From: Eledone cirrhosa
Lineage: Eukaryota
Assembly: GCA_964016885.1 (NCBI GenBank)
Contig: OZ024741.1
Location: 111,786,001-111,850,000 of the forward strand
DNA length: 64,000 nt
Direction: 5' to 3'
In this document: positions 5,317 through 61,908 of the stretch, one piece after another
Layout of the letters: each line of letters begins with the position of its first letter
Numbering within the stretch: the first letter of the stretch is position 1
Made by a program: the position numbers and the translations under genes
The notes under the pieces: model-generated
Database searches by the model: none
Told to the model about the DNA's origin: nothing
The model's input: the letters and a program-made list of their open reading frames with translations, nothing else

Positions 5317-5706
5317 TCAGGTTTGAGGTTTACCACTGTATTGAGCTGGTCTATTCCGTATGGTCAATCGTAATGTAATAATATAGAGCGTACTCAACGT
5401 AAAGCAGTTCAACCGTCTTTGTTTTTGTAGTTGGTGGTGCTATTACGGAGTTAAATATTATAATGAAATGAGAGGAGGCTGGATTTGTGTAAATCCTTGA
5501 AAGGTTAATTATACTATGATCATTTCAATGACCGGGTTCCGTATGAATCCGGTGATATCATCAGGTATTCGAAATATAATACGTGAATGTAATAGATAAA
5601 ATCCATGGGGCTGAAAATCGAGGACCCGAGGGCGACCGCTATCTTGCACCCTCTATCTTAGCCGGTCGTACACAAATCCAGCCTCCTGTCATTTCATTAT
5701 AATATT
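5317..5706. mobile_element. small non-autonomous fold-back element in (AT)n with a hammerhead
   Basis: Inverted arms at 5454-5491 and 5669-5706, an unpaired extension at 5317-5453, and (AT)n on both sides. Confidence 0.75.
5511..5568 (-). ncRNA. type I hammerhead ribozyme
   Basis: Reverse complement reads atac-CTGATGA-tatcaccgg...ccggtcatt-GAAA-tgatcata-gtat, with palindromic stem III ATGATCAT. Confidence 0.75.
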
Positions 5707-7151
5707 ATATATATATATATATATATATATATATATATATATATATATATATATAAATATATATATGGCTGTATATAGAATGTATTTTGCAATACACTTT
5801 ATGCTTAATTAAAACCGGTCTTCAAAATGCTTTTAATTAAGCATAAAGTGTATTGCAAAATACATTATATATACATCCATATATATATATTGCTATTTCA
5901 GAGCTCCAATTCTAAATATATATATATATATATATATATATATATATATATATATATATATATATATATATATATATATATATATATATACAGTATTTTC
6001 CGTTGTGTTGTAATATAAATATTACACACAGTAGATTATCAGCTCACGTAGAGTTTGCTCGACGGTTCCAGTTGTAGTTCCAAAAGTAATCCGGAGAAAA
6101 ATAGAAAGATTTGAATGGATACAGTTTAGTTGAAAGGAATTTATTGACACGTGTTTCTATAACAGTTACATAACCTAAAACAGCAGATTTGAATGGATAC
6201 AGTTTAGTTGAAAGGAATTTATTGACACGTGTTTCTATAACAGTTACATAACCTAAAACAGCTATCTACAAACTTTTAGTTATGCAGACATTCAATATTT
6301 CAATGTTATTATTTACTGTCATTTCATCAGAATAATATTACTGAGGACCTATTTAGTTTTTATAGAGAATATTAGGAGGGAGGGGTGAAGTTGTTAGAAG
6401 AATAGTTGAAGGAGTGGTTTTTCGATAGCAGTGAGAATTCTTGGTGGCAGTGAGTAATTAGATTCCCATCTGTTGTTTTGACATTTTTTATAGAATATAT
6501 TATTGGTTATTTTTCTAAATCTATAGAAGGATTAGAGATAGTAAAGATATGCGTGGTTGGTTTTGTGTTTGCACTTAATTAACATTCAGACTTAAATTTT
6601 TCTTTCGAGTGTACGTATCCTTTCACCCACGCATTCACACACAAATATATTTGCACACCTCTACAAAATACATATACTCACAATTCACATATTCATACTT
6701 ACATATATATACACATGCATACACATATATATACACACATGTATTCATGTACATACATACGCGCTCATGTGTATACATTTTCATACTCAACTTATCTTTA
6801 TATACACACGTATAGACACACACATATATACATACATACTCTAGTCCATGTGTACACACACACACATACATACACATCCATATACACATACATACATACA
6901 CATATATATATATATATATATACATACATATATATATATATATATATATATATATATATATATATATATATATATATACATATATACACACATATACATA
7001 TACACACACACACACATATATATATAAGCACTTTAATACATGAATACACTTACATCTAACTATACACATCAAACATATATATATATTTACTTATTTATAT
7101 ACATTTTCACATATATATACATACTTATGGACGTTTTTAGACACATTCAAT

Positions 7152-7544
7152 AACTGCCTGGAAAAAAATATTATTTATAAGTGTACCATTAAATCCGGAG
7201 GCAACGAGTGGTATTACGTGGGATCAACGGCAACATCGTTTAAATCTCTATTGTATAGGCATTCTTACTCAATAAAACACCAGAGCCAAAGAAATGTAAC
7301 AACTTTAGCAGAAAAAGCTTGGACGCTCAGGGATAGCAATCAAAAGTTTACCCTAAAATGGGAAAAATTAGCTAAAACCCAAAGCTTTTCCAGGAGCCAA
7401 AATTTCTGCAAATTGTGTAATCTTGAGATTTATTACATAATCACACACAAGAAGAAACTGCTGAATAACAGAATTGAACGAACATTATTCTGCCGTCACA
7501 GAACTAAAACCCTTTTTTCCCACTACAAGCCGAATATTACATAA
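7152..7544 (+). pseudogene. PLE (Naiad-type) GIY-YIG endonuclease fragment
   Basis: NIIYKC...YYVGSTATSFK..LYRH..S...T.LA...W.L...LKWE...CKLCNLE..II...LLNNR.E...CRH is the same motif set as the C-terminus of ORF 29622-31463. Confidence 0.85.
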
Positions 7545-58789: not shown

Positions 58790-59010
58790 GACGGTTCAAT
58801 ATTCCCTATAGACCCTACAGATAGCTGGTCTGCCTACACTTGATAGCAGTTGTTCGACACAAACCCAAAGATCTGCAATATACGTACACTGGGCGATAGC
58901 ATACGGGATGGTTTCGTTGTCCTGCATGTATCTGGGATGGTTCGGCTGGTGGCACATCCGTATCTGTAGTGCTTGTCTCAACACTCTGTAGAACAGCCAT
59001 GCCATGGACT
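58790..59010 (-). mobile_element. fragment of a Tx1-like LINE ORF2 C-terminus
   Basis: AWLFYR...NETIPYAIAQCTYIADLWVCVEQLLS aligns with AWQCYR...DETVLHALVQCPCITDLWSYVLQLLS of the 54-57 kb LINE. Confidence 0.75.
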
Positions 59011-61033
59011 TTAGAAATTATCCATATTCCCCGACCTGACCCCCCCCCCCCCCCCAAAAAAAAAGCTTGTTCAGATAGTCCATGTCAACGCCCAGAGCCG
59101 CTCCCAGATTATCGTCACACACCTTTACTGACCTGGACGGGATTTGAACACAGAACGTAAAGAGCCGTAACTAAATGCCGTAAATCATTTTGTTTGATGC
59201 TTTAAACATTTAAACAATTCACCGTCCTTGGTTTCTAATTCTGCCAGTCGGCCATCTTGAATAGTGAGTGATAGTGAAAGACGAGATTCGACCTTCGAAA
59301 TCAAGTTTGATAAGCGTGAAAAGTGTATGAACACCCTTGGCTAACCTTCAAACTTTCTTTTTCAAATATCGATTATACAAATAACGTTTTTAGATACTCT
59401 CCAGACAGTTTGTCTAACTGGTTTGATATCATATCAGAATATGGTTATAATTAGAGCTTAATGATACGATACAACAACATATGAGACGGAATGCTCAGTA
59501 TAATAGTGCTAATGACGACAATTATCTTACTACATTAGCAAAATACATACTGTTAGGAAATATTTAGAAAAGAGTTAGAAAATGGAAAATATGTTGGTGT
59601 ATTTTTTTATCTAACATCTAATCAGTGCTAAATCTTTGACTATCCTATGTTTATTGCAGACATACTGACAGGGTTTACGTTTAACTCTTTCGTTACTATA
59701 TATTTCTAATGAAAAGCATTGCCTATCGTTTGAAATAACGTTGAAAATAATCAAGAATACGGCCAGATTTAGTAATATAACTAACTATGCCATTGTATAT
59801 TATAAACTATGTAATACGATGCCTGAAGTCCGATGACGTTCATCGCTTCCATTGGAGCAAGTTGGTTATTGATTGACTGGAAGGTCCAGAGTATCGTTTT
59901 GAACGACGTGTTTTAGTTTAATTTAAGTCTGGTGAAATGTGTGTATGGTGAGTGGAGTTCATTATATAATTATGATTTGCATTTGCTTGAATTCGTGGCT
60001 TGGTTTAGGTTTGTTTACACTCTAGTTCAGACAAGCGAAGATTTTAGTTGTATATATATATATATACATACACACACACACAAACGCACATACACACACA
60101 CACACACACACACACACACACACACACACACACACACACACACACACACACACACACATATATATATATATATATATATATATATATATATATATACAAT
60201 AATTATAACGAGCCAGACAATTAGATTTCGTCTAGGATCGCAGATGATCAAAATAAAACCGTATATTGTAAATATGAAGTTGCATGTTAGAGTGGACACA
60301 ATACGTTAGATAGTGTGGATAAACGGATTTGTATAGTTTCAACGCAGTGTCCTGTGAGCAGTTGATGCATTAACAAAATACCGTGCACAGGTGTTATTTC
60401 CGAAACAATTCGAGAAATTGCATTTAGTCTGGACCGACGGAGCAAGCGATCAACGGAGTTCAGTCCTAAATTTTGGCGGTGGAATCTGTCCATGATACCA
60501 GCAGAACCATATTTAACCTAACTATAGCAGTGGTAGTAGTCCAACGTTGTGACAGCATCACGTGACCGTCTAAAGAGGAAGGTAGTCATATTTCCTCATT
60601 AGAACAAAACACACTATTGGCGGTTAAATTCAAGCAGTTTGAAAATCGTATCAGAGATCTCAGCCGAGGTAATCATATAAACAACAAATGCTAATACTAT
60701 CTATCGGTTGCAACTCCAGATAGTAGGAACAACGTGAAATAAAGTGTCTTGCCCAAGGACATAACGCATCACCTGGTCTGGTAATCGAACTCACAATCTA
60801 ACTAACTAACTAACTAACTAACTAACTAACTAACTAACTAACTAACTAACTATCTATCTATCTATATATATATATATATATATATATATATATATATATA
60901 TATACAATATATAAGCAAAGAGATACGCACTCATCAGATAAAATACAAGATTTGTTTTATAACTAGTGACACACCCAGGAATCAGACCTTAACGGTTCAG
61001 GTTCCGTTTGGATATATATATATATATATATAT

Positions 61034-61908
61034 ATAAAGAATTAATATATCTAGTAACATATATATACATACAGATGCATATCAATGCTAGCAAATATAT
61101 AGGTTTTGTCTTAGTAACTTTGTGGTTCAATGCATGGGGTTGCAGAACAATAATATGAGAGACGTAAAATAAGAAAATTATAAAATTAACTTACTTACTA
61201 AAATTTCACTCCCAACTAATTAGTTTCTGAAATGGAATAAATATACTTTCCGAAGAAAATTTAGAGAATCATTTCGTCGTCAGGGAAGTCTATTCTCAGC
61301 TAAGTATCCAGGCAAAGCGTGGACTCTGGAAACTTATACAAAAATAATTCAGTGGATAGAAAATAGCAAAGCGTGGACTGAATTCCTAGCCATTGAAAAA
61401 ATCACTGCCTACTGCAAAGTTACTAAGACAATACCTATATATTTGCTAGCATTGACATGCATCTGTATGTATATATATGTTACTAGATATATTAATTCTT
61501 TATAATTATCTCCAAATTATTTGTCGAGCAATATTGGCCAAGACTGCTGCTATGGTAGCAGGCAGGCCGCTGTCTTCTTAACAAACCACTTTCCACTGAT
61601 TGACCTCGATGTCACGTGATTGATTCTCTTTGAATTTGCCACCGACACAGTAGGCAGTGATTTTTTCAATGGCTAGGAATTCATTCCACGCTTTGCTATT
61701 TTCTATCCACTGAATTATTTTTGTATAAGTTTCCAGAGTCCACGCTTTGCCTGGATACTTAGCTGAGAATAGACTTCCCTGACGACGAAATGATTCTCTA
61801 AATTTTCTTCGGAAAGTATATTTATTCCATGTCAGAAACTAATTAGTTGGGAGTGAAATTTTAGTAAGTAAGTTAATTTTATAATTTTCTTATTTTACGT
61901 CTCTCATA
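61034..61908. mobile_element. retrozyme-like fold-back element with circularly permuted arms
   Basis: 61034-61122 is the reverse complement of 61413-61502, and 61155-61412 is the reverse complement of 61648-61908. Both ends abut (AT)n. Confidence 0.87.
61773..61854 (+). ncRNA. type I hammerhead ribozyme (mirror copy at 61208-61289, minus)
   Basis: acttcc-CTGACGA-cgaaatg...catgtca-GAAA-ctaattagtt-gggagt, with palindromic stem III ACTAATTAGT. Confidence 0.78.

Follow-up and report, generated by a model that had tools for sequence, protein, structure and literature searches.

Inverted insertions assigned to Penelope-like elements in Eledone cirrhosa nearly always have two unlike outer ends. They were studied in a 64,000-nucleotide stretch of contig OZ024741.1 (assembly GCA_964016885.1, positions 111,786,001 to 111,850,000; hereafter the window) and in a wider sample of the 3.0-Gb genome. 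In these insertions, two arms of one element lie head-to-head in an (AT)n microsatellite; one arm continues to an outer end point and thus bears an extension, here called the tail, while the other stops at an inner end point. The combination of one tail end with one inner end is valid in about 97% of pairs and spans at least two clades, Hydra-type and Neptune/Nematis-type. Start sites are not chosen independently by the two ends, and their pairing is nearly obligatory. Our preferred explanation, with a probability of about 0.63, is that both cut (AT)n ends prime reverse transcription at different fixed sites of one RNA and that the complementary DNAs (cDNAs) are end-joined; double priming of either kind, on one RNA or on two, is quite likely.

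Outer ends of inverted pairs

Four families, designated E, F, H and I, were sampled by anchors, i.e. exact patterns just inside the inner end, with which tailed and untailed arms are detected equally. Exact anchor matches number 5,929 (E), 463 (F), 539 (H) and 23,958 (I) genome-wide, and loci (prefix L) were drawn from the first 100 matches by position in each family. The surroundings of all 100 listed matches were examined in family E; in F, H and I, the first 30 matches were taken as loci, together with pairs picked by spacing alone and extended unresolved copies. Arms were mapped onto single natural copies as references, and some 5' values are floors fixed by reference length. An initial search that selected tailed copies was excluded from every tally, as were pairs with an (AT)n junction (L055, L119, L253), pairs with one end lost or internal (L267, L069, L082, L068, L097, L262), four cross-family junctions, and incidental family I pairs in L062 and L109. 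L067 and L213 were each entered once, and 18 of the listed pairs were tallied in family I.

Both outer ends are visible in 112 head-to-head pairs of arms from the same family (39 in E, 28 in F, 27 in H and 18 in I), and 108 of these combine a tail end with an inner end. The four exceptions comprise two pairs with damaged ends, the ambiguous inner/inner pair L216, and L276, in which the tail is coupled with an upstream TA site. No tail/tail pair occurs among the 112, for which P is ~ 2e-31 under independent end choice. The preliminary description, made from the window alone, had let both cut ends prime near RNA 3' ends, and it has to be amended in that the two start sites are not chosen independently. 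It had called for two discrete end points instead of random arm ends, and these are seen in each family, 43–146 nucleotides (nt) apart. The tail ends at +113/+114 in 28/28 pairs of family F and the inner end is at +20 in 27/28; in family I the corresponding points are +76 (17/18) and +15 (18/18), while family E has two main tail ends, +54 and +68.

The same preference emerges with end-specific patterns, in a set of loci that overlaps partly with the pair tally. Such patterns gave 205 tail and 144 inner matches in family F, and 9,687 and 10,238 in family I. Outward pairs among the matches listed are 32 mixed versus 1 symmetric in F and 41 versus 2 in I, that is, 73 mixed versus 3 symmetric candidates combined. 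Inner sites end in 4–5 alternating A/T nucleotides (background 4–11%), and (AT)3 or longer lies within 4 nt of both outer ends in 67 of 87 pairs. Folding of the tails disclosed no clear common structure. About half of the sampled insertions are pairs, most of which duplicate hundreds to thousands of bases.

Assignment of the tail and non-overlapping forms

The tail is assigned freely to the longer or the shorter arm: the tail arm extends further 5' in 48 pairs, less far in 51, equally far in 8, and to an unknown extent in 3. Since the tail is on the shorter arm in about half of the pairs, a second RNA-templated synthesis is needed, unless the endonuclease trims a hairpin. Simple fold-back was rejected on these grounds. 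Fold-back of a target-primed cDNA is limited to the sequence in that cDNA, so the tail would be expected on the long arm only, and because inner-ended solo copies are common, many inner/inner pairs are predicted as well; neither was observed.

In 10 of 110 pairs, the inverted arm consists of the tail only and does not overlap the other arm; its 5' end lies at +48 to +86 in family H, at +50 and +53 in F, and at +48 in I. Locus L276 consists of a tail arm, a gap, and another arm whose end lies at an internal, upstream TA site before (AT)n, and in L069 an inverted upstream piece adjoins the 5' end of the main arm. Judged by their layout, both are plain inversions of the twin-priming type. In L242/243, neither arm contains the other. 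An arm-specific duplication suspected in family F proved to be a microsatellite length change.

In L1 twin priming, the second target strand primes on the RNA and the two cDNAs join head-to-head via microhomology. The geometry is shared by L069, L276 and the ten tail-only pairs, but here the second site is fixed and close to the first, and most pairs are duplicated. The pairs thus work like twin priming yet differ from its L1 form. The original contrast, that the sequence is duplicated unlike in L1 twin priming, holds for the majority, which overlap, and fails for the non-overlapping cases just described.

Common source of the arms and their junctions

Arms of family E pairs differ at 209 of 8,277 sites (2.5%), compared with a mean of 4.7% between loci (28/35 pairs with enough overlap). 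In 82 subfamily-informative columns, arms are concordant 774 times and discordant 32 times, where 236 discordances are expected. Private variants are common to both arms in 19 instances and confined to one arm in 111. These patterns show that the two arms derive from a single source and have since aged independently, evidence against library chimeras.

A junction common to two loci (within 5 nt) was found in one locus pair among 99, with unlike junction sequences; a master palindrome was ruled out, as junctions are locus-specific. In 8 of 99 pairs, the 5' ends of the two arms lie no more than 4 nt apart, whereas permutation gives 1.3 such pairs and none of 20,000 shuffles attained 8; equal 5' ends combined with self-complementary centres characterize L077, L088 and L238. 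Of 91 scored junctions, 43 carry small insertions, often local repeats (a class inflated by reference divergence), 6 are blunt and 42 overlap. Junction microhomology, one of the checks proposed at the outset, is enriched: among the 48 junctions that lack an insertion, 32 overlap by at least 2 nt, whereas 1,000 random joins do so in 20% of cases. The comparison with empty sites yielded less. Searching among paralogous flanks gave 3 matches in 87 insertions, two without information, and only L083 versus L099 looks like an AT-filled empty site.

Two loci show further arrangements. In L067:6471-7563, a short head-to-head pair forms four tandem units with (AT)n between them, and two-fold versions exist in L296 and L297. 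In L213:375-9703 (G000:C1:403541900-403551800), a family H insertion has been duplicated along with its inverted arm, the same junction and some 2 kb of flanking host sequence, which places host DNA inside a partial tandem. This resembles the host-DNA spacer described for Pen1 (PMC3846280; statements on papers cited by PubMed Central (PMC) number refer to the portions of them that were accessible).

Proposed double priming and its alternatives

According to the preferred explanation, the endonuclease would cut both target strands, after which the 3' end of one strand would pair at the outer site via 2–5 nt of A/T and that of the other strand at the inner site. The template would be read-through RNA from a tandem copy: in tandem copies of families E and F, the tail continues into the reading frame of the following unit, and because it overlaps the start of that frame, priming is likely to be internal. 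This replaces the earlier suggestion of priming near the RNA 3' end. Two reverse transcriptase (RT) molecules, probably a dimer, would copy toward the RNA 5' end. One RNA would probably be used, with the outer enzyme displacing the inner cDNA where the cDNAs overlap; we infer that the one-RNA form requires this strand displacement. Penelope-like RTs are not known to have RNase H. Each cDNA would stop at its own point, and the cDNA 3' ends would be joined by microhomology or small-insertion end joining, followed by fill-in. An early-stopping outer cDNA would give a non-duplicated, L1-like inversion, and priming from a single end a solo copy. The use of one RNA would explain rare site sharing, matching alleles, the excess of equal 5' ends, and non-overlapping forms.

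Double priming from both strands of a self-complementary (AT)n target had been the core of the preliminary description. Discrete ends, outward ribozymes (see below), locus-specific junctions with microhomology, and the tail on the shorter arm in about half of the pairs speak for it. The self-complementary target is dispensable, given that the same tailed inverted structure occurs with 8–10 bp target duplications in a rotifer (PMC3846280).

Several observations weigh against priming of both ends on one RNA. Every mechanistic step is read from finished insertions. Inspection of the three symmetric candidates gave two true tail/tail pairs, L291 and L292 (the latter from family I, outside the tally), and one false one; L216 is a candidate for inner/inner. 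The tail/tail pair in L291 forms a perfect palindrome, a small palindrome of the tail is present in L297, and since both look like fold-back, this process happens at some rate. Microhomology at the outer site is weak (2–4 nt of alternating A/T, background 8–39%), and a lizard enzyme in vitro started at a site without homology to the target (PMC11167929). Family E showed tail-arm 5' ends accumulating at the inner site, but F, H and I did not, and the pattern was dropped; tail-only arms show neither a pile-up at the inner site in these three families nor a clear collision signature. Hairpin models, too, lead one to expect arms with equal 5' ends and shared alleles, and two RNAs from a single source locus would likewise share their alleles. 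Finally, in two chimeras (L065:409-6560 and L117:2863-7527), the inner arm belongs to family E and the tail arm to family I, the two being in direct contact without intervening (AT)n, and if these are single-event products, they needed two RNAs. As proof of two RNAs they are unsafe, given the cross-clade head-to-head joins L251:663-2900 and L275:4482-7641 (family E with Hydra-type, both inner/inner), which indicate that separate events can also leave such junctions.

The main rival is that the cDNA folds back to a hairpin reaching past the tail, the endonuclease cuts its strands unevenly (inner/outer, either way), and the hairpin, once opened, becomes linked to the target. It builds on the suggestion that the tail arises by endonuclease resolution of an intermediate (PMC8557442), and we consider it unlikely. 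Obligate asymmetry, shared alleles, and the combination of equal 5' ends and self-complementary centres (L077, L088, L238) would follow from it, an endonuclease preference for TA would account for A/T-rich end sites, and L291 and L297 resemble fold-back products. Although the uneven hairpin can be stretched to every class, the 48:51 ratio requires random cut polarity, tail-only arms require fold-back into the tail and then template removal, and arms in L242/243 are not nested (later deletion is possible). An extra integrase-like joining step is required too, which was not found described for these elements in the accessible literature, and end points in vitro are RT start sites on target-primed strands (PMC11167929). 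Ranked after it, and also improbable, is double priming in which an asymmetric complex carries two separate RNAs, as a rule from one and the same source locus. Strand displacement would then be unnecessary and the direct E–I joins in L065 and L117 would be accommodated, but cross-clade joins (L251, L275) show that chimeras may stem from separate events, and same-site avoidance, the excess of equal 5' ends and non-overlapping twin-primed cases are left unexplained.

Self-priming on an antisense RNA template, proposed in PMC3846280, accounts for head-to-head orientation and palindromic junctions, and some junctions here are palindromic. It is nevertheless very improbable: tail and inner pairing and free arm assignment are not predicted, most junctions have no hairpin, 43 of 91 carry insertions and spacers reach several kb, and sense RNA is the template in vitro (PMC11167929). 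Least probable of all are several events, be it separate insertions accumulating within a single (AT)n, the copying of a few master palindromes, or fold-back artefacts of reads or assembly. It is true that the elements gather in shared microsatellites and that junctions between families occur; reads of four sequencing runs over window positions 21713-21974 were swamped by family copies, and among the matches listed none bridged 21864/21865. Independent insertions would, however, yield many symmetric pairs and unlike arms, the locus-specific junctions oppose master palindromes, the 2.5% distance between arms with 111 one-arm private variants opposes library chimeras, and non-palindromic tail-only forms are incompatible with read fold-backs.

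A stronger version of double priming on one RNA would make programmed twin priming the built-in, normal two-ended route of Penelope-like elements. An RT-endonuclease dimer would use one RNA with two start sites, the tail would be the footprint between the active sites, and inverted pseudo-long terminal repeats (pseudo-LTRs) would be the normal product. We put this forward tentatively, at somewhat less than even odds.

Identity of the elements and hammerhead motifs

By their sequence, all nine insertions first described in the window are assignable to Penelope-like elements, either Hydra-type or Neptune/Nematis-type. They add new members to clades already described, and their architecture has been published before. 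Spacers carry fragments of RT and GIY-YIG endonuclease. As in endonuclease-bearing Penelope-like elements, one open reading frame (ORF) codes for RT together with a GIY-YIG endonuclease at the C-terminal end, and the pseudo-LTR arrangement is manifested in partial tandems (L089, L181, L186, L200, L271), 5' truncation, inverted copies, and the tail. The Naiad/Chlamys clades were ruled out, since the endonuclease is C-terminal here and hammerheads are present; in accessible descriptions of those clades, it is N-terminal to RT and the canonical hammerhead is absent.

In family F, the tandem copy L186 has an 873-amino-acid frame in which YRDD and IVY...YIG motifs are read directly. The ORF contains DKT, a CxCX5C linker, and CxxC and CxH near the endonuclease end, without CCHH, while RWK reads RWR. 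DKT, the same linker, CxxC/CxH, lack of CCHH and (TA)n insertion make up the Hydra-clade signature in PMC8557442, and the match indicates that family F is Hydra-type. Family F also shares the hammerhead and (TA)n insertion with this clade, in which families F, H, D, G and B are provisionally placed; its unit of ~ 4.5–4.9 kb contrasts with the "generally < 3 kb" given for the clade in the accessible source. Family E has a CX4CxxC linker and CCHH-like endonuclease spacing, matching the CX2-5CxxC linker and CCHH of Neptune/Nematis, features that do not separate Neptune from Nematis. Family I is a sister of E (~ 71% identical). Pfam yields weak matches that fall short of the cut-off (GIY-YIG, E 0.0046, for the ORF at 47332; RVT_1, E 0.0003, for family E), and the family F ORF retrieved nothing from Pfam or PDB. 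Asparagine-rich inserts occur in ORFs of both clades (L089, reverse strand, 5314-7578; window 17921-19051 and 47332-47925), and such inserts are reported in rotifer Penelope elements as well.

A hammerhead descriptor that checks stems gave 11 matches in 6 of 13 elements scanned, all 11 pointing outward, against 0.05 in a shuffled set. A looser core motif in the elements at 5317, 16137, 21537 and 61037 is outward too, in agreement with the initial observation that ribozyme sense strands face outward. The window copies at 33990 and 47179 yielded no such motif, and no hammerhead family was among the best 150 of 241 matches in an Rfam scan. The hammerhead motif lies in the pseudo-LTR and is a predicted ribozyme.

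Insertions in the window

Self-comparison of the window confirmed the nine insertions of the preliminary description as extension, arm, spacer, and inverted arm between simple repeats (Table 1). The extensions, expected at about 55–170 nt, measure 57–159 nt. Arms are 97–100% complementary in six insertions, ~ 95–96% in those at 27257 and 47179, and 91% in that at 33990. The long copy bears the extension at 5317, 21537, 27257, 33990 and 47179, being the ORF-sense copy at 27257 and 47179, and the short inverted arm bears it at 5991 and 16367, as had been noted. The general layout with (AT)n flanks stands, with departures in detail: the insertion at 47179 adjoins (GT)n within its (AT)n, the left flank at 33990 is a decayed AT run, and the insertions at 16137 and 49621 have no spacer, the extension lying on one side of the palindrome.

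Table 1. Inverted elements and other repeats in the window (window coordinates; tail lengths in nt; hammerhead strands in brackets)
Feature	Positions	Strand	Assignment	Tail length	Layout	Hammerheads and ORF fragments
Insertion A	5317..5706			137	tail 5317-5453 on long copy; arm 5454-5491; inverted arm 5669-5706	core in spacer at 5564 (-)
Insertion B	5991..8663			110	short inverted arm to 7152, its tail 5991-6100; 78-nt duplication; spacer 7153-7687; arm 7688-8663	hammerheads 6330 (-), 8512 (+); endonuclease fragment (+) in spacer
Insertion C	16137..16341			74	74-nt tail and 131-nt palindrome	cores 16269 (-), 16283 (+)
Insertion D	16367..19586	-	Hydra-type	159	inner site at 16367; short inverted arm 19391-19427; tail up to 19586	ORF fragment 17921-19051
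Insertion E	21537..21978		family E, Neptune/Nematis-type	62	tail 21537-21598; arms 21599-21712 and 21865-21978	core in spacer at 21841 (-)
Insertion F	27257..33778	-	family F, Hydra-type	~95	tail 27257-27351; arms ~27352-29589 and 31536-33778	hammerheads 27435 (-), 33694 (+); RT-endonuclease ORF fragment 29622-31547 in spacer
Insertion G	33990..34614		relative of H	96	long-copy tail 33990-34085; arms 34086-34214 and 34490-34614	
Insertion H	47179..49447	+	family H	146	short inverted arm 47179-47316; arm 49163-49301; tail 49302-49447	endonuclease ORF fragment 47332-47925
Insertion I	49621..50206		family I, sister of E	~57	529-nt palindrome 49621-50149, then tail to 50206	hammerheads 49813 (-), 49953 (+)
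Insertion J (outside the nine)	61037..61909				extension 61037-61152; arms 61153-61414 and 61648-61909	outward cores 61283 (-), 61779 (+)
Inverted element	26029..27226 (approximate ends)		family K		inverted	hammerhead-bearing
Inverted element	45828..47087 (approximate ends)		family K relative		tandem and inverted	
~180-nt repeat	1096-1278, 3094-3253, 9086-9275, 23946-24130, 37570-37763, 63456-63629

Beyond the nine, at least three more inverted elements are present, at 26029, 45828 and 61037. The extension of the last (61037-61152) corresponds for the most part to the internal segment 61415-61504 of the same element in reverse complement. In the palindrome of insertion C (16211-16341), the centre is the 5' strand of hammerhead stem I, which suggests a structure-dependent stop. 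At inner ends of family H, a (CT)n or (GT)n expansion frequently separates the element from (AT)n (L149, L208, L216, L217; window 47149-47178). An element with inverted and direct repeats, in which no hammerhead match was found, lies between (AT)n runs at 19729-20604. A frameshifted long interspersed element with apurinic/apyrimidinic (AP) endonuclease and RT, presumably L1/Tx1-like judging by its translation, occupies 54048-57369, 3' of (AT)n at 52824-52933. The dispersed repeat of ~ 180 nt, with six copies in the window, is probably a short interspersed element and has no relation to the Penelope insertions.

Relation to known systems and significance

Published Penelope-like insertions display an inverted copy that abuts the 5' end, a tail, partial tandems, (TA)n targeting, and hammerheads near the 3' end (PMC8557442, PMC3846280, PMC2377424), and inverted pseudo-LTRs were rightly taken as established when the window was first described. 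In these papers, the tail is often at one end only, and at either end, as here; its length is 30–40 nt there versus 43–159 nt here. Their accessible parts present the tail as optional, and pair statistics were not found in them, whereas here the combination of tail and inner end reaches ~ 97% and is independent of arm length. The explanations offered, endonuclease resolution (PMC8557442) or antisense self-priming (PMC3846280), are proposals, and PMC8557442 names the origin of tandem and inverted structures and of the tail as an open problem.

The Poseidon element PAc of Anolis, studied in vitro (PMC11167929), offers the closest parallel. Both strands of an AT-rich target are cut and extended, a dimer is predicted, and two adjacent internal RT start sites bracket the tail. 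Two start sites, two-strand extension and AT-rich target match the reading of one RNA primed from both ends, while the accessible part of the PAc paper makes no connection to inverted insertions. The PAc start site is without target homology, in contrast to the inner sites here with their 4–5 nt of alternating A/T. Older subscription papers aside, neither the pairing rule nor a double-priming model for Penelope-like elements was found in the literature, and no model of the inverted structure was found in the accessible parts of PMC4209133, PMC6431247, PMC8969392 and bioRxiv 2026.07.22.740005. What appears to be new is the near-obligate pairing of tail and inner ends, the fact that this pairing does not depend on arm length, and the subset resembling twin priming.

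The pairing rule, arm-length independence and non-overlapping cases place sharp constraints on integration models, and they link genomic structure to the in vitro findings of two start sites and extension of both strands. Annotation and assembly of this genome are also affected, since palindromes of this kind number in the tens of thousands and can be mistaken for elements with terminal inverted repeats or for fold-back artefacts. If double priming is true, a telomerase-related RT would integrate through two-ended priming as a regular route.

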